In this document: positions 23,462 to 39,178 of the stretch, piece after piece
Layout: every line of letters begins with the position of its first letter
How positions within the stretch are numbered: the first letter of the stretch is position 1
Assembly (NCBI GenBank): GCA_964441335.1
Contig: CAYTUI010000003.1
Span: forward strand, 1 to 49,086
Source of the DNA: an uncultured Gammaproteobacteria bacterium
GTDB taxonomy: Bacteria; Patescibacteriota; Patescibacteriia; UBA1558; 2-01-FULL-52-15
Length of the DNA stretch: 49,086 nt
Direction of reading: 5' to 3'
Position numbers and translations under genes: made by a program
Notes under the pieces: generated by a model
Seen by the model: only the letters and a program-made list of their open reading frames with translations
What the model was told of the DNA's origin: nothing
Databases searched by the model: none

Positions 23462-25192
23462 TTATTCCCTCTTGATACGCAAAACTTCAGTAATGGTTGT
23501 GACACCTAACAGAGCCTTTAGCAAACCATCCTCAAAAATAGTCACCATGCCTTGCTCCACGGCCGCTTTATTTAATTCATTAGAAGAAGCGCTACGAATA
23601 ATCGCCTCTTGCACCACATCAGTATTTTCCATAATTTCCATTACTCCAATACGTCCTTCATAACCGGAATTATGACAGCGGAGACAGCCCTTGCCTTTAT
23701 AAAAAGTCAGATCTTTAAAAGATTTTACCTCGGCTTCCACTACTTTCAATTCTTTAAAACGTTCTAACATCTTTTCCAACGCGAATTCCTTACTTAAACT
23801 CTCCAACTCGTCTTTTGACAATTTAAAACTTTCAATGCAATCAAGGCATATTCTCCTGACTAGACGTTGCGCGACTACGACGTTTAGAGTAGAGGAAACC
23901 AGAAAAGGTTCTACTTCCATATCTAATAATCGTGGCGGAGCGCCAGCGGCGTTGTTAGTGTGCAAAGTAGATAAAACCAAATGTCCTGTTAAAGCCGCCC
24001 GCACGGCAATCTGGGCGGTTTCTTTATCTCTGATTTCTCCAATCATAATGATGTCCGGGTCTTGCCTTAGCAGGGCTCTTAAACCGGTGGCAAAATCATA
24101 ACCGGCCTGCAGGTTGACTTGAGTCTGGTTAACTCTTCTGACGCCGTATTCAATCGGGTCTTCAATAGTACTAATATTGACTCCCTCGGTATTCAAAATA
24201 TTCAAAATAGAATACAGGGTGGTGGTCTTACCGGAACCGGTCGGTCCGACTACCAGAATCATACCAAAAGGCTTATCAACTTGCCGCCGCATAATTTTAA
24301 TATTGACATCTGACAACCCCAACTCCTCTAAATTCAAATTTTGTGATTCGTCAGTCATCAATCTCATAACAATCTTCTCACCATAAAAAGCCGGGATAAT
24401 CGATACTCTAACAGACTCCTCCTCGTCCTCAATTTTAAAAGAAAAGCGACCATCCTGCGGTACCCGGTGTTCATCAATACGTAAATTAGCCAAAATTTTA
24501 ATACGCGCCACCAAAGCATCATGAACTGAAGAAGGCAATTCGGCTCGATCTTTCAACTCCCCATCAATTCTGAACCTAATAACCACAGAATCAGGTAGAG
24601 CCTCAATATGAATATCTGACGACTGTTCAAACATGGCGTATTCCAGAACAGTGTCAACAATTTGAATGATGGGTATCTCTATCTGAATCGGCTGGCCATC
24701 AATTTTTCTGACCTTAGAATTGATAATGCTGACCAACTCGTCTTTGATATTCTTTTCATACAATCTGGAGGCAAATCTGAAATTCTTACTGGTCATCAAA
24801 AACGGTACCACCTTCATCTTGGTAGCGGCCTTAATCAGATCAAGGCTTTTTTTACTCTTGGGCTTTACAAAGGCCACTTTTAAAGTATCACCTTCTATTT
24901 CAAAAGGTATGGCCTTGGCGGTATGGACAACTTTTTCATCTATCTCGGCTAAAACTTTGGGGTCTAGCTTACGTTTGCGAAGATTTACATAAGGCACATC
25001 TATCTTGTCCCCTATTAATTCATAAAGAAAAGGCTCCTTTAGCAAACCTCGCTCAACCAAAATATCTTCAATACCGCGGCGGCGGCGCAGAGCATTTTCT
25101 TCGGCTTGAGCCCAGTCATTATCCTTAATAACACCAGAGGTTTTCAGTATCTCCTTTAGTTCATCTTGGGAAATTGGTAATTGTGATGGCAT
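23462..25192 (-). CDS. pilB: Type IV pilus assembly ATPase (GspE/PulE family)
   Basis: GPTGSGKTT, TIEDPIE, LRQDPDIIMIGEIRD, TGHLVLSTLHTN, tetra-Cys motif. Confidence 0.95.
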   Translation of the reverse strand: MPSQLPISQDELKEILKTSGVIKDNDWAQAEENALRRRRGIEDILVERGLLKEPFLYELIGDKIDVPYVNLRKRKLDPKVLAEIDEKVVHTAKAIPFEIEGDTLKVAFVKPKSKKSLDLIKAATKMKVVPFLMTSKNFRFASRLYEKNIKDELVSIINSKVRKIDGQPIQIEIPIIQIVDTVLEYAMFEQSSDIHIEALPDSVVIRFRIDGELKDRAELPSSVHDALVARIKILANLRIDEHRVPQDGRFSFKIEDEEESVRVSIIPAFYGEKIVMRLMTDESQNLNLEELGLSDVNIKIMRRQVDKPFGMILVVGPTGSGKTTTLYSILNILNTEGVNISTIEDPIEYGVRRVNQTQVNLQAGYDFATGLRALLRQDPDIIMIGEIRDKETAQIAVRAALTGHLVLSTLHTNNAAGAPPRLLDMEVEPFLVSSTLNVVVAQRLVRRICLDCIESFKLSKDELESLSKEFALEKMLERFKELKVVEAEVKSFKDLTFYKGKGCLRCHNSGYEGRIGVMEIMENTDVVQEAIIRSASSNELNKAAVEQGMVTIFEDGLLKALLGVTTITEVLRIKRE

Positions 25193-25254
25193 GAGATTAA
25201 AAATTATTAATCGCTACGCTAAATTATAACATATTTCCAGATTTTTTGTCGGAC

Positions 25255-25282
25255 TTGCTTTTATCAAACTTTTCCGTATACT
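25255..25282 (+). promoter_or_regulatory. Promoter of the tRNA locus
   Basis: TTGCTT...TATACT about 40 nt upstream of the tRNA-Ser fragment. Confidence 0.5.
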
Positions 25283-25321
25283 GTAAGTGGTTCACCATCA
25301 ATATAACTATGTTTATCGCCT

Positions 25322-25357
25322 GGAAGCGTGGCTGAGTGGTTGAAGGCGCCGCACTCG
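25322..25357 (+). pseudogene. 5' half of a tRNA-Ser gene broken in the anticodon (CG|A)
   Basis: GGAAGCG TG GCTG AGTGGTTGA AGGC G CCGCA CT CG; no matching 3' half seen downstream. Confidence 0.8.
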
Positions 25358-25422
25358 CCCGCTCGTCAAGCGAGCGGGTCAGCTCAATCGCCAGCGCTGT
25401 GCGCTGTAGCGATATGAGCTGA
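25358..25422. repeat. Twin GC-rich hairpin insert in the tRNA-Ser fragment
   Basis: cccgctcg-tcaag-cgagcggg directly followed by tcagctca...cagcgc-tgt-gcgctg...tgagctga. Confidence 0.85.
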
Positions 25423-25449
25423 AAAAATCAATAATAGAAATGAAAAGCG

Positions 25450-25701
25450 ATGATATTTTATTATGTATATGTATTAAAAAGTACTGTCATAAACAGACGA
25501 TATACAGGATCGACTGAAAACTTACCCAGCAGGGTGAAAAACCACAACGACGGAAAAGTTAAATCCACCAAACCATATCGTCCTTGGCAGCTAATATACT
25601 ATGAAGCGCATAGTAGTAAGACTCTTGCCAGAAAAGCTGAAATATTCTATAAAACCGGTCAAGGACGTAGACAGCTAAAAAAGAAGTTGGGAGATGATTA
25701 A
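25450..25701 (+). CDS. Stand-alone GIY-YIG nuclease family protein
   Basis: YYVYVL...YTGST...R...HN...STK.YRPW.LIYYE...ARKAE...K pattern; 83 aa. Confidence 0.92.
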   Translation: MIFYYVYVLKSTVINRRYTGSTENLPSRVKNHNDGKVKSTKPYRPWQLIYYEAHSSKTLARKAEIFYKTGQGRRQLKKKLGDD

Positions 25702-25705
25702 CCAT

Positions 25706-25793
25706 GGTGGATTGGCCGAGTGGTTTAAGGCGCCTCTCTCGAAAAGAGGTCGGGTATTAGCCCGCGTAGGTTCGAATCCTACATCCACCGCCA
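25706..25793 (+). tRNA. tRNA-Ser(CGA)
   Basis: Full cloverleaf: GGTGGAT/ATCCACC acceptor, CCTCT-CTCGAAA-AGAGG, long variable arm, TTCGAAT, G73, CCA. Confidence 0.96.
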
Positions 25794-25829
25794 ACTAAAT
25801 TTCTACTCTTAAACTAAGGCTTAGTCTTA

Positions 25830-25905
25830 ACCAAAATAGTTCAGAATTTAAAATTTTAAGGATTATAATTTGTTTGGGATTTGAAATTTGAGATTTGTGA
25901 TTTAT
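25830..25905. repeat. AT-rich heptamer-periodic element (mainly right arm)
   Basis: tttggga tttgaaa tttgaga tttgtga ttt. Confidence 0.55.
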
Positions 25906-25910
25906 TTAAT

Positions 25911-25982
25911 CGGGGTGTAGCGCAGCTCCGACGCTAGGTCGGAGTCCCGACTTCTGCGAAGCGGAGCGTCGGGATTGGTAGC
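25911..25982 (+). pseudogene. 5' tRNA-Pro-like fragment with twin-hairpin insert in the D-loop
   Basis: cggggtgtagcgcag[ctccgac-gctag-gtcggag tcccgac...gtcggga]ttggtagc, then truncated. Confidence 0.8.
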
Positions 25983-26014
25983 AAAACAAAAGGATAGGTA
26001 TTTTATAAAGTTAT

Positions 26015-26090
26015 CGGGGTATGGCGCAGTTGGTAGCGCGCATGATTCGGGTTCATGAGGCCGCCGGTTCGAGTCCGGCTACCCCGACCA
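26015..26090 (+). tRNA. tRNA-Pro(CGG)
   Basis: CGGGGTA/TACCCCG acceptor, CATGA-TTCGGGT-TCATG, TTCGAGT, CCA. Confidence 0.96.
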
Positions 26091-26144
26091 TCACAAAAAT
26101 AGTGTGCTCGGCATTTTGCTTGATATTTTAATGAAATAGTATAT

Positions 26145-28979
26145 ATGACAAAAGAGGAAGCTAAACAGCAAATTCAAAAGCTCGTTGATAAATATCAAAG
26201 AGTACTAGCAGAAGGAAAAATGAAATCCTACAATGAAGCCCAAACTCGCAACGAGTTTATTGAGCCACTTTTTGAATACTTGGGCTGGGACATGAGAAAT
26301 CTCACCAATGATAATGAAGTTACAACTGAAGAAAACGTCTCAGGAGGTAGGGTTGATTTAGCTTTCCGCTTCAATAATATCCCCGCCATGTTCTTAGAAG
26401 CTAAAGCAATGAAAGTTGATTTGGATGAGTGGAAATGGGCGGAGCAGGCTATCAATTATAGCTGGAACAAAAGTGTTACTTGGGCCGTTTTAACGGACTT
26501 TGAAAGCGTTAAAATATTTAATGCTGAAATCCCTCCCAAAAGCATTTCACAAAATCTTTTCATTGAAATTAAGTGTCAGGATTATATTAATCGTTTTGAC
26601 CAACTTTGGCTTCTCTCAAAGGAGAGTTTTGAACAGAAACTATTGGACAAGGAGGCTCAAAAATGGGGCAAACTGACAACCCGAAAACAAGTTGGTGAAA
26701 AACTTTTTGAGGACTTAATGTATTGGCGTATTTTGCTAACTAATGATTTCAAAAAACAAAATACCTTAACTGACGAGGAATTAGATGAAGGAGTCCAAAG
26801 ACTTCTTGATCGCCTTATTTTCATCCGCACCGCCGAGGATCGAAAAATAGAGCAAAATATTTTACTCTCTCTCCTGAGAGAGTGGGAAAGCAAGGGTAAA
26901 ACACACAATATTTACAAAAGATTGGTAGATGGGTTTCGTTGGTTTGATGAAAATTACAATTCTAAGCTTTTCGCACTTCATTATTGTGAAGAGTGGAAAG
27001 CGAGCGATAAAGTGCTAGTTGAAGTTATAAATGGTCTTTACGAAACAAAAGGCGGCTACCGCTATGACTTTTCCGTTATTTCTGCCGATGTATTGGGCGG
27101 GATTTATGAACAATATTTAAGCTTTGTTCAGGTTCGCAAGGGCGAAGACAAAACAAAATCAAAAAGAAAATCGCAGGGTATTTATTACACGCCAAAATAT
27201 ATTGTGGAGTTCATCGTCAAAGAAACGTTGGGTGAGGTGTTAAAAAAAACGAAGCCTAAAGAGTGGGCGAAAATTAAAGTTCTTGACCCCGCCTGTGGTT
27301 CAGGTTCTTTCCTAACTGCTGCCTACGATATAATTTTGGACGCTCTGGCAAAACAAAATCCGCAAACCTCGCTTTTCGCTAAATTTGATATCCTTAAAAA
27401 AAATATTTTTGGCATAGACCTTGACGCGCAAGCGGTGGAAATTGCTCAACTAAATCTTTTATTAAAAGTTTTATCTCAAAAAACAAAGCTACCAACGCTT
27501 CAGCACAATCTGCGAGTTGGAAATTCACTAATTAAGGTTGGGGATGAGAAATACAAGCCCTTTGATTTCCAGAGCGAATTCAAAGATGCTTTTGAGTCAG
27601 GTGGTTTTGATGTGATTATCGGAAACCCGCCGTATATCAAGGAGTATACTAACCGCGCTGCTTTTGACGGTTTGCATGAAAGCCCTTATTACCAAGGAAA
27701 AATGGATCTTTGGACTCTTTTTGCTTGTCGTGCAATTGATCTGCTTAAAGACGGCGGATATTTAGGTTTTATCGCTCCGAATAATTGGCTGACCAATGCA
27801 GGATCAAGTATTTTTAGAGATAAGATTTTGTCAGAAGGACAAATAATAAAATTTGTGGATTTTGGCGATTTTAAGGTGTTTAAAGACGCTGGTATTCAAA
27901 CCATGATCTTCATATTCAAGAAGATCAAACCAAAGAAAAGCTATGAAACAACTTATGTTAAGGTCGATGATGAAAGTATTAGTGAAGACGCGATAAATGT
28001 ACTTTTACAAACAAATTTTAAATCCAGTAACGACAGTATAGTCAAATTCGAGGCTACAATAAAGCCGCAACAATCAGTTGGAAAGAACATTGCATTTTCT
28101 AATCAGACAAACGCTGAAATTTTAAATAAGATAGAAACAAAGAAAAATTTTGACCTGACCAGTAGGGAAGTCGCGCAAGGTATCGTTTTTCCGCAAGATT
28201 TTTTGAATAAAGCAAACCAGATAAAACTGTCTAATAATTTCAAAGTGGGCCAAGGAATTTTTGGATTATCGGAAAGAGAGAAAGAAAATCTGCATTTGAC
28301 CAAAGAAGAACTAAAATTGGTCAAACCATATTTTACTACTGAACAATTAGGAAGATATTATGGAAATCCAAATAATAAACTTTGGCTCATTTACACAGAT
28401 TCAAAATTTAAAAATCCAAAAGCAATATTACCCTATCCCAACATAAAGGCTCATTTAGATAAATTTAGTGAGGTTATCTCCTCCGACAACAAGCCATATG
28501 GCTTACATCGAGCGCGGGATGAACGATTTTTCGTTGGCGAAAAAATTATTGCTCTGCGCAAATGCCCAAATAGACCAATATTTACTTATACCGACTTTGA
28601 CTGCTATGTATCGGCGACCTTCTATGTTGTCAAAACCGCCCGACTTAATCAGAAATATTTGACTGGATTGTTGAACTCCGCACTCATAAAATACTGGCTC
28701 AAACACAAAGGCAAAATGCAGGGTAGCAACTTCCAGATAGATAAGGAGCCTTTGCTCGACATTCCGATTGTTAAACCGGACGAAACTGAACAGGGAAAGG
28801 TCGCGGTCTTAGTTGATAAGGCAACGAAACTCTACGGCGATTATCGGAGTACATCTGCTAATACCGACAAATGGCATGCACTCAAAGCCGAAATCGAAAA
28901 ACTTAATGGCGAAATTGACGAGACAATTTATAAACTCTATGGACTCACCGCAGAAGAAATCAGAACAATTGAAAAGTAA
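26145..28979 (+). CDS. Type IIG (Eco57I-like) fused restriction endonuclease / N6-adenine methyltransferase
   Basis: N-terminal HsdR_N-like D...EAK...QA nuclease, GIYYTP, DPACGSGSF, GNPPY, TaqI-like C-terminal specificity region. Confidence 0.92.
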   Translation: MTKEEAKQQIQKLVDKYQRVLAEGKMKSYNEAQTRNEFIEPLFEYLGWDMRNLTNDNEVTTEENVSGGRVDLAFRFNNIPAMFLEAKAMKVDLDEWKWAEQAINYSWNKSVTWAVLTDFESVKIFNAEIPPKSISQNLFIEIKCQDYINRFDQLWLLSKESFEQKLLDKEAQKWGKLTTRKQVGEKLFEDLMYWRILLTNDFKKQNTLTDEELDEGVQRLLDRLIFIRTAEDRKIEQNILLSLLREWESKGKTHNIYKRLVDGFRWFDENYNSKLFALHYCEEWKASDKVLVEVINGLYETKGGYRYDFSVISADVLGGIYEQYLSFVQVRKGEDKTKSKRKSQGIYYTPKYIVEFIVKETLGEVLKKTKPKEWAKIKVLDPACGSGSFLTAAYDIILDALAKQNPQTSLFAKFDILKKNIFGIDLDAQAVEIAQLNLLLKVLSQKTKLPTLQHNLRVGNSLIKVGDEKYKPFDFQSEFKDAFESGGFDVIIGNPPYIKEYTNRAAFDGLHESPYYQGKMDLWTLFACRAIDLLKDGGYLGFIAPNNWLTNAGSSIFRDKILSEGQIIKFVDFGDFKVFKDAGIQTMIFIFKKIKPKKSYETTYVKVDDESISEDAINVLLQTNFKSSNDSIVKFEATIKPQQSVGKNIAFSNQTNAEILNKIETKKNFDLTSREVAQGIVFPQDFLNKANQIKLSNNFKVGQGIFGLSEREKENLHLTKEELKLVKPYFTTEQLGRYYGNPNNKLWLIYTDSKFKNPKAILPYPNIKAHLDKFSEVISSDNKPYGLHRARDERFFVGEKIIALRKCPNRPIFTYTDFDCYVSATFYVVKTARLNQKYLTGLLNSALIKYWLKHKGKMQGSNFQIDKEPLLDIPIVKPDETEQGKVAVLVDKATKLYGDYRSTSANTDKWHALKAEIEKLNGEIDETIYKLYGLTAEEIRTIEK

Positions 28980-38122: not shown

Positions 38123-39178
38123 TTATTTGTCTCGAATTATGGTTTCCAAAATCTCGTTCAGTTTTGTAAACAAAATATTATTATCAAATTTCAGCTGGCT
38201 AATCTGTCCTCTGTAGCTATCTAAATCAGACAGCCAGTTGTCTAATAAATTTCTGGTCAAGCGAAAGGTCATCCGTCCCAAACCAAGCTTATCTATCATC
38301 CGCCCATTAAGTATTTGTTCATATTGCATTTTAATTGGAATAGATAAAACCGGTTTACCCAAATAAAGACTTTCACTAATTAAAGTAAAACCACCATTGG
38401 CAATTACAGCCTTAGCGCTAGCCATATCTTCAATAATCTGTCGAGCATCAAAATCCCTAAAAATCAGGTTGTCAGATTTAATCTCCCGATTACCATTATA
38501 AATAATATATTGCTGATTGGAATTTTTGAGGACGTTTAATAATTCCTTATACGTATCTGATGTTTGATAAACCAAAATATGGTTACTTATGGTTGGCGTA
38601 ACAGCTTTAACTTCCTCTCTGATCAAAGGCGGCATCAGCCAACTGGATTTTCCATGATTTTTTTTAAGTGGTGGATAAAAAAAGGTGGTGATCAAGGAAT
38701 AATCACGGCTGGGCAAAAGAGAATCAATGAACAATCTGGTGACTAAGTAATAGGTATAATCTGATCGTTCAACTTTCAGACGAACGTCACTAATTATATG
38801 ATTATTATCAATACTAATGAGCGGAATATTGTAGAAGGCTGAAATTAGTGAGGCGACCGGTTCAAAATCGCTGATAACTACTTGTGGTTCAAAATTTTTC
38901 AACATTTTCCTAATAGTCAGAATATTTCTGGGCAATGACTTAACTTGAGTCATATATTTTATGATCGTCTTGCCTCGTTTTACTCGATTATCCTGATAGA
39001 TTAGTTTGAGACCAGAAATCCTGCCGATGGGCTGGTATTTTTTTGATAAAACATCAAAAGCCTTGCCACTAGCCAAAATAGTAACTTGATGATTACTTTT
39101 TAATAAATGGTCAATGACGATAGAGCTGCGAAAGGCATGCCCCAAACCGTCACCGCAAACTGTATATACAATTCTCAT
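38123..39178 (-). CDS. MJ1255/VC2487-family glycosyltransferase (GT-B)
   Basis: GDGLGHAFRS, ISDFEP, NGGFTLISESLYLGKP, QYEQILNG. Confidence 0.9.
   Translation of the reverse strand: MRIVYTVCGDGLGHAFRSSIVIDHLLKSNHQVTILASGKAFDVLSKKYQPIGRISGLKLIYQDNRVKRGKTIIKYMTQVKSLPRNILTIRKMLKNFEPQVVISDFEPVASLISAFYNIPLISIDNNHIISDVRLKVERSDYTYYLVTRLFIDSLLPSRDYSLITTFFYPPLKKNHGKSSWLMPPLIREEVKAVTPTISNHILVYQTSDTYKELLNVLKNSNQQYIIYNGNREIKSDNLIFRDFDARQIIEDMASAKAVIANGGFTLISESLYLGKPVLSIPIKMQYEQILNGRMIDKLGLGRMTFRLTRNLLDNWLSDLDSYRGQISQLKFDNNILFTKLNEILETIIRDK

Follow-up and report, generated by a model that had tools for sequence, protein, structure and literature searches.

The DNA analyzed here (the window; 49,086 nt of contig CAYTUI010000003.1) contains, on the forward strand, a split piece of a Pro-type tRNA next to a complete tRNA-Pro gene. 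The piece starts with a 15-nt 5′ stub (25911 to 25925) comprising the 5′ strand of the acceptor and the start of the D-arm. At GCAG^TTG, it is interrupted by a 49-nt twin hairpin of a family with CCGAC...GTCGG ends (25926 to 25974; hereafter CCGAC hairpin). Eight further tRNA bases (TTGGTAGC; 25975 to 25982), the remainder of the D-loop, lead to the break point and are followed by an AT-rich spacer of 32 nt without an ORF (25983 to 26014) and by an intact tRNA-Pro(CGG) with encoded CCA (26015 to 26090; ARAGORN; Rfam RF00005, 68.1 bits). This layout, already described in an earlier note made from the letters alone, was confirmed by the sequence, ARAGORN, and Rfam. The insert consists of two adjacent hairpins of 19 and 30 nt with a predicted folding energy of −31 kcal/mol (z = −4.9; equal stability in none of 200 shuffles), and its excision restores the D-loop of the stub, with target bases neither lost nor duplicated. 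Among the first 15 positions, two (7 and 9) are not the same in the stub and the intact gene. Its 15-mer was found in 5 of 25 surveyed Pro(CGG) genes, and that of the intact gene in 0 of the 25.

An assembly artifact or misjoin at the Pro locus was ruled out, because in both runs, X1 and X2, a single Logan contig covers positions 25150 to 26400 with 0 differences; both runs may be the source of this DNA and were not counted as an independent occurrence. Upstream of tRNA-Pro, at about 25850 to 25910, the window has AT-rich, strand-biased runs of 6- to 7-nt near-repeats, and similar runs lie upstream of tRNA-Pro(GGG) on contig C1 and tRNA-Gly(TCC) on contig C55. Directly 3′ of tRNA-Pro is a 944-aa fused restriction-modification-type gene with adenine methyltransferase matches (26145 to 28979).

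A second unit lies next door, on the same strand, at tRNA-Ser. It comprises the 5′ half of a displaced tRNA-Ser(CGA) gene (25322 to 25357), recognized by its match to a gene of the relative G004, a twin hairpin in the anticodon loop that belongs to another family than that of the Pro unit (25358 to 25422; z = −4.4 for the fold of 25323 to 25425), a single-domain GIY-YIG gene of 83 aa (25450 to 25701; PF01541, E = 7.5e-14), and an intact tRNA-Ser(CGA) (25706 to 25793; ARAGORN; Rfam, 60.9 bits). The best solved relatives of the nuclease are SLX1 and UPF0213, its named close homologs come from "Ca. Komeilibacteria," "Ca. Kuenenbacteria," and a Patescibacteria group bacterium, and no family for it was found in NCBIfam. 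On the strength of these homologs, the DNA very likely belongs to a member of the Patescibacteria. About 33 bases of the Ser stub match, by eye, the intact tRNA-Ser(CGA) of G004, which also has the pilB-adjacent position, while only 28 of 36 match the window's own intact Ser gene. Since the stub is closer to the G004 gene at the same position, the intact tRNA-Ser(CGA) of the window appears to be a newcomer that replaced the previous gene (window 25322 to 25793; comparison loci L126 [G004:C29], L002, L127, and L128). The 3′ half of the displaced gene was not found within the window. The motif GAAAAG(C/T)GAT is present at 25442 to 25451 and at 22 other places in this genome; it stands just 5′ of the start codon in most tRNA-linked GIY-YIG genes and in several unrelated genes, and possibly serves these bacteria in ribosome binding. 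As an element-specific motif, GAAAAGCGAT was rejected, because it precedes unrelated genes too.

Partial tRNA copies recur in the genome to which the window belongs (G000; 1.27 Mb in 82 contigs, with 42 tRNAs according to ARAGORN). An exact 12-mer echo of the tRNA gene occurs within 450 nt on the same strand for 18 of the 42 genes, a lower bound that leaves out the Pro locus with its differing stub, and on the opposite strand for 0 of the 42. This asymmetry makes the echo pattern more than chance. Outside tRNA genes, there are 261 clusters of tRNA 12-mers; 44 of them fall into the 4.6% of the genome that is at most 1 kb away from a tRNA, and 43 of these 44 share the strand of their tRNA. Together with the stubs in relatives described below, the 18 echoes support the proposal of the earlier note that the recurrence reflects a process rather than an accident. 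Moreover, for 6 of the 10 PF01541 matches in the genome, the distance to a tRNA is about 210 nt or less, and on contig C9, just after tRNA-Gln(TTG) (38618 to 38691), a GIY-YIG stump of about 19 codons is fused to unrelated sequence. The CCGAC twin hairpin has two copies in G000, each at GCAG^TTG: that of the Pro stub and one that splits a Lys(CTT) stub. In addition, intact Glu, Arg, and Phe tRNAs (C7, 23168 to 23242; C10, 184 to 260; C56, 2813 to 2887) are flanked by short inverted repeats, which, judged by eye, would lengthen the acceptor helix.

We surveyed 109 distinct Pro genes from genomes of the order and from GTDB pattern hits. A GIY-YIG gene was present upstream of 0 of 26 CGG, 0 of 35 GGG, and 2 of 48 TGG genes, and a regular expression flagged upstream stubs, some of them false, at 6 of the 26 Pro(CGG) genes. 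The Pro(TGG) loci L018 and L109 have a stub, a non-CCGAC twin hairpin at GTT^GG, a nuclease gene, and an intact tRNA gene. In L109, a unit with nuclease, one without, and the intact gene stand in tandem, and the spacer of the gene-less unit can be aligned to the L018 nuclease leader (equaled by 17 of 5,000 shuffles). A nuclease-free CCGAC insert at the same Pro site as in the window was found in G001 (L010) and at three assessable Saccharibacteria loci. The exact Pro-plus-CCGAC pattern was detected only in G000 among 86 genomes of the order, in a scan that missed L010 of the same family, whose stub is without the first bases, and a stricter GCAG pattern was likewise limited to G000 among 401 genomes of the phylum. 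Thus, this exact insertion site is uncommon. Three of the seven GTDB pattern hits (L052 to L054) were chance matches and were set aside, and L057 ends at a contig end.

In a metagenome scan for the Pro-CCGAC arrangement, 13 loci were recovered, of which 1 was incomplete and 12 could be assessed. Nine of the 12 are gene-less (about five lineages by eye), and three carry a GIY-YIG ORF. The latter (L296, L301, and L306) are near-identical and represent one lineage. They have a Pro stub, the GCGCAG^TTGG site, and a CCGAC twin hairpin as in the window, followed by an 89-aa GIY-YIG ORF; in L301 and L306, an intact tRNA-Pro(GGG) comes next, with the ORF at the position of the 32-nt spacer of the window. 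Judged by its sequence, this cassette is the full form of the window's Pro unit. A GIY-YIG gene between Pro fragment and tRNA, which the earlier note had proposed to look for, is thus present at these 3 of the 12 metagenome loci and also at L018 and L109.

Identity of the L301 protein to the Ser nuclease is 23%, and no GIY-YIG protein of this assembly exceeds 34%. The proteins closest to it (52% and 49% identity) are likewise encoded near CCGAC hairpins, and in a quick tree it groups with the CCGAC-near GIY-YIGs of L159 and L245 (SH-aLRT, 97), a clade without a member in this assembly. A second clade of their own is formed by three CCGAC-linked GIY-YIGs at Val genes (SH-aLRT, 93). Their loci (L161, L257, and L291) are mirror cassettes consisting of an intact tRNA-Val, the GIY-YIG gene, 4 to 6 tRNA bases, the hairpin, and the rest of a different Val gene; the dead tRNA-Val is hairpin-split and nearly complete. 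Altogether, the six CCGAC-linked nuclease rows require 2 changes on the tree versus a shuffled mean of 5.8. The Pro unit had been interpreted in the earlier note as a nonautonomous or decayed version of the Ser unit that lost its GIY-YIG gene. The nuclease-bearing Pro form agrees with one part of this interpretation, but descent from the adjacent Ser unit is not supported: hairpin family and insertion site are different, and the nuclease accompanying the Pro hairpin falls into a separate clade. Because this nuclease is just 23% identical to that of the Ser unit and the hairpins differ, the Pro unit is best described as a sister element of the Ser unit and not as its decayed form.

The anatomy of such cassettes was analyzed at the level of the class. 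Of about 195 protein-similarity matches, 90 loci with 89 GIY-YIG genes were fetched. Although these genes were picked by protein similarity alone, 62 of the 89 have a tRNA no more than 500 nt away, and in 41 cases a tRNA on the same strand follows within 200 nt downstream. Among the first 30, 18 of the 20 with a downstream tRNA also have a piece of that tRNA upstream. A survey of tRNA loci for hairpin-split partial copies, another proposal of the earlier note, yielded 64 upstream stubs among 448 parsed tRNA genes, 18 with and 46 without a nuclease gene, these rows containing 2 duplicates and about 8 misparses. The hairpin is located anywhere from position 8 to 55, and the stub tails end 4 to 11 nt past the last hairpin in 54 of the 64 stubs, the floor of 4 nt being built into the parser. 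When tRNAs with an upstream copy of their 12-nt 5′ end were considered (n = 70), the parser detected a hairpin in 50, and visual inspection reveals one in most of the remaining 20; hairpin-free stubs are rare in this set. Some dead tRNA copies contain two or three hairpins. The first segment of the stub is identical to the intact neighbor in 49 of 56 cases, while the Pro and Ser units of the window differ from theirs.

On a tree of 35 cassette nucleases, built from an 80-column alignment, with many poorly supported forks and with hairpin labels assigned by eye, hairpin family (8 states) requires 9 changes (shuffled mean, 22.3; minimum, 18), amino acid (9 states) 14 changes (shuffled mean, 19.8), and host family (5 states) 16 changes (shuffled mean, 20.0). 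Hairpin family agrees better with the nuclease phylogeny than the type of tRNA or the family of the host, a signal of which some is produced by the cis linkage of hairpin and gene alone. One nuclease clade spans Leu, Asn, Phe, and Lys genes with a common hairpin, and the Asn cassettes occupy three places in the tree, with three hairpins. Given this linkage in cis, the moving unit would be hairpin plus nuclease, with the tRNA as the target.

The CCGAC hairpin pattern was present in 48 of 301 genomes of the class, versus 5 genomes for the reversed control. The 70 loci fetched, which represent a subset of the matches, yielded 62 distinct inserts, at least 33 of them located after AG. A tRNA was detected within 400 nt of 28 inserts but not of the other 34; removal of the insert recreates a tRNA 12-mer in 16, and a GIY-YIG gene is located within 400 nt in 9 but starts directly downstream in 0 of the 62. 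On these counts, the CCGAC hairpin is a wider repeat, which is enriched in tRNA-derived DNA but not limited to it. At L132 (G288:C10, near 43853), a CCGAC twin hairpin lies within sequence resembling 23S rRNA.

Several known systems resemble these cassettes in part. Integrative elements leave att duplications at tRNA genes, so that a partial tRNA copy stands beside the intact gene, as is also the case in the Pro unit. In contrast to such elements, the cassettes are about 100 to 350 nt long and lack an integrase, either end of the tRNA is duplicated, and the dead copy is hairpin-split. According to PMC11893778, SsnA of Neisseria binds to a hairpin within single-stranded DNA and cleaves this DNA a few bases beyond the hairpin, and the authors suggest a mobile origin. 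Shared with the Ssn/NTS/SRM system are a single-domain GIY-YIG protein of less than 100 aa beside short hairpin repeats and, as described for Ssn, enzyme-hairpin pairs with their own specificity (PMC11893778). GIY-YIG proteins of the single-domain type below 150 aa are encoded in the Ser unit (83 aa) and in the full Pro form (89 aa), and none is encoded in the Pro unit of the window. However, the SRM consensus is matched by 0 of the 64 parsed units, and its three matches in G000 are all away from the Pro locus. Furthermore, the cassettes described here split tRNA copies and carry the gene between stub and intact tRNA, while in the Ssn system the gene lies between two repeats, and the word "tRNA" is absent from the main text of that paper (PMC11893778).

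SegB of phages T4 and T6 is a free-standing GIY-YIG homing endonuclease of tRNA clusters. Its recognition sequence is a motif conserved in tRNAs, neighboring tRNA genes spread along with it, and it drives segmental amplification (PMC2330249, PMC13096335). Like the cassettes, it ties a GIY-YIG gene to tRNA genes of many isotypes; a gene inside the unit is present in L301 and L306 but not in the window's Pro unit. Unlike them, SegB is a phage enzyme that cuts double-stranded DNA at a T-loop motif, and hairpin inserts, tRNA stubs, and gene-less derivatives do not appear in its description in the available parts of PMC2330249 and PMC13096335. In the cassettes, by contrast, the site of breakage shifts with the hairpin, and most units retain an intact target. 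REPINs are miniature nonautonomous hairpin doublets that are moved in trans by RAYT, each group with its own enzyme (PMC3116915). The Pro insert is likewise a short noncoding hairpin doublet repeated across genomes. The linked enzyme is a GIY-YIG protein, however, with no Y1 match in L001 to L191, and the units are concentrated in tRNA-derived sequence. By analogy, the Pro unit may work like an Ssn/SRM or RAYT/REPIN pair, although by the tests applied it is a member of neither.

We consider it probable, with moderate confidence, that the Pro unit is a nonautonomous member of a class of tRNA-targeting hairpin/GIY-YIG cassettes that would work in an Ssn/SRM-like manner despite the failed SRM consensus. 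It likely represents a small selfish cassette in its gene-less form; the full form has a predicted GIY-YIG nuclease at the position of the spacer. Such a selfish element is predicted to spread among the tRNA genes of ultra-small bacteria. By analogy to SsnA, the putative nuclease would bind its own hairpin in single-stranded DNA and nick a few bases outside it; the break points at 4 to 11 nt from the hairpins of the parsed stubs fit such cleavage. Host recombination could then paste the piece into a tRNA gene, with the tRNA end serving as homology, and the old tRNA end would be left as a dead stub with a complete gene alongside. Since the target would be regenerated, the site might be hit again, giving tandem units. 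Gene-less units might be moved in trans by a matching nuclease or be left behind after deletion of the gene. The window's Pro copy is probably an inert relic, because a matching nuclease was not found in this assembly. Its spacer shows no likeness to the leader or tail of the L301 nuclease gene (p of about 0.4), and relations to the Ile(GAT) spacer (best-of-41 p = 0.057) and the Pro(TGG) leader (p = 0.76) are unsupported. Since the spacer resembles the Ser leader weakly and those of L301 not at all, loss of a gene and never having had one fit the sequence alike.

Some observations sit less well with a nuclease-driven cassette. The 34 CCGAC inserts away from tRNAs and the small number near a GIY-YIG gene (9 of 62) count against it. 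To our knowledge, GIY-YIG hydrolases have no strand-transfer step; therefore, nicking alone does not explain the precise hairpin insertion at unrelated sites. Furthermore, since the stub equals its intact neighbor in most cases, the intact copy would usually not be the cleavage-resistant replacement that classical homing needs. The main rival enzyme for hairpin placement is a Y1 transposase. The hairpins could be REP/REPIN-like repeats spread by such an enzyme of the RAYT type, which gather in dead tRNA duplicates arising from unrelated recombination, with the GIY-YIG gene as a hitchhiker. Precise insertion without target duplication, often after AG, as in at least 33 of the 62 inserts, suits HUH/Y1 chemistry. 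The presence of more than half of the CCGAC copies away from detected tRNAs, the two or three hairpins in some dead copies, and four Y1_Tnp matches in this genome also speak for it. However, the four Y1 pieces match none of L001 to L191, the loci covered by this search (tblastn, E of ≤1e-4), hairpin-free stubs are few, nuclease clades follow hairpin family, and the break points are close to the hairpin. On balance, we regard this explanation as unlikely.

We assign a still lower probability, in the range of the improbable, to the Pro unit being a copy of the adjacent Ser unit minus its nuclease gene. The Pro spacer does align to the leader and first codons of the Ser nuclease gene (score, 30; reached by 2 of 5,000 shuffles), the best of 58 leaders, but this comparison was chosen post hoc (best-of-58 p = 0.042), and both sequences are AT-rich. 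Similarly, after eight misparsed rows had been dropped beforehand, a word at most 2 edits away from GAAAAGCGAT was found in 4 of 24 gene-less spacers, including that of Pro, versus 12 of 240 controls (p = 0.046), but a match with 1 edit in 0 of the 24. The differing hairpin family and site and the low identity of the CCGAC-linked Pro nuclease to that of the Ser unit also speak against a copy. That the partial duplication is the att scar of an integrase, left by a phage or island to which the downstream restriction-modification gene perhaps belongs, is highly improbable. tRNA genes are common integration sites, and this 944-aa gene directly after tRNA-Pro would fit. Nevertheless, the duplicated part is the 5′ end and is placed upstream, the window contains neither a Pro 3′ echo nor another 11-mer of the Pro gene elsewhere, and an att duplication leaves the hairpin unexplained. 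No integrase-sized unassigned ORF exists in the 25.2- to 26.1-kb region, and no integrase with a matching second att site was seen at the Pro locus. Just as little probability is given to a functional RNA part, be it a tRNA intron, one half of a split tRNA, or a leader with a regulatory role in the Pro transcript. The strong fold and an insertion point kept across distant lineages are in its favor. However, the stub has no 3′ half and ends at tRNA position 23, so that insert removal gives no complete tRNA; the insert matches no Rfam family at an E of ≤5; upstream stubs are limited to the few Pro(CGG) genes flagged above; and the same hairpin is present in other tRNA types and in non-tRNA DNA.

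Extending the cassette interpretation, we tentatively propose, as a possibility we hold slightly doubtful, that Patescibacteria harbor an undescribed class of minimal mobile elements. These would consist of many pairs of an 80- to 90-aa GIY-YIG protein and its cognate hairpin. They would enter tRNA genes at various loops, either restoring or replacing the gene, and mobilize gene-less, MITE-like copies such as the Pro unit in trans, with no need for a transposase or integrase. No description of a tRNA hairpin/GIY-YIG cassette was found in the literature searched, which excluded most subscription journals. If the proposal is true, each pair would be a natural sequence-specific single-stranded DNA nuclease with a readable target, and the class would supply candidate enzyme-hairpin pairs for single-stranded DNA tools. 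It would also explain the clutter of hairpin-split partial copies and tiny "putative endonuclease" genes at tRNA loci of these streamlined genomes, as well as tRNA gene swaps between lineages, such as the apparent Ser replacement in the window. The Pro locus alone is probably a relic; its value lies in being the gene-less twin of a full cassette.

The cassettes further make it possible to test directly the suggested but unsettled origin of hairpin/GIY-YIG pairs such as NTS-ssnA from mobile elements. In G000, two GIY-YIG genes (C7, 18406 to 18630; C18, 20329 to 20550) are located away from tRNAs and are flanked by other repeats. In the quick tree, their products form a clade separate from the tRNA-linked GIY-YIG proteins. 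By their motif, they look SsnA-like and may be true Ssn members.
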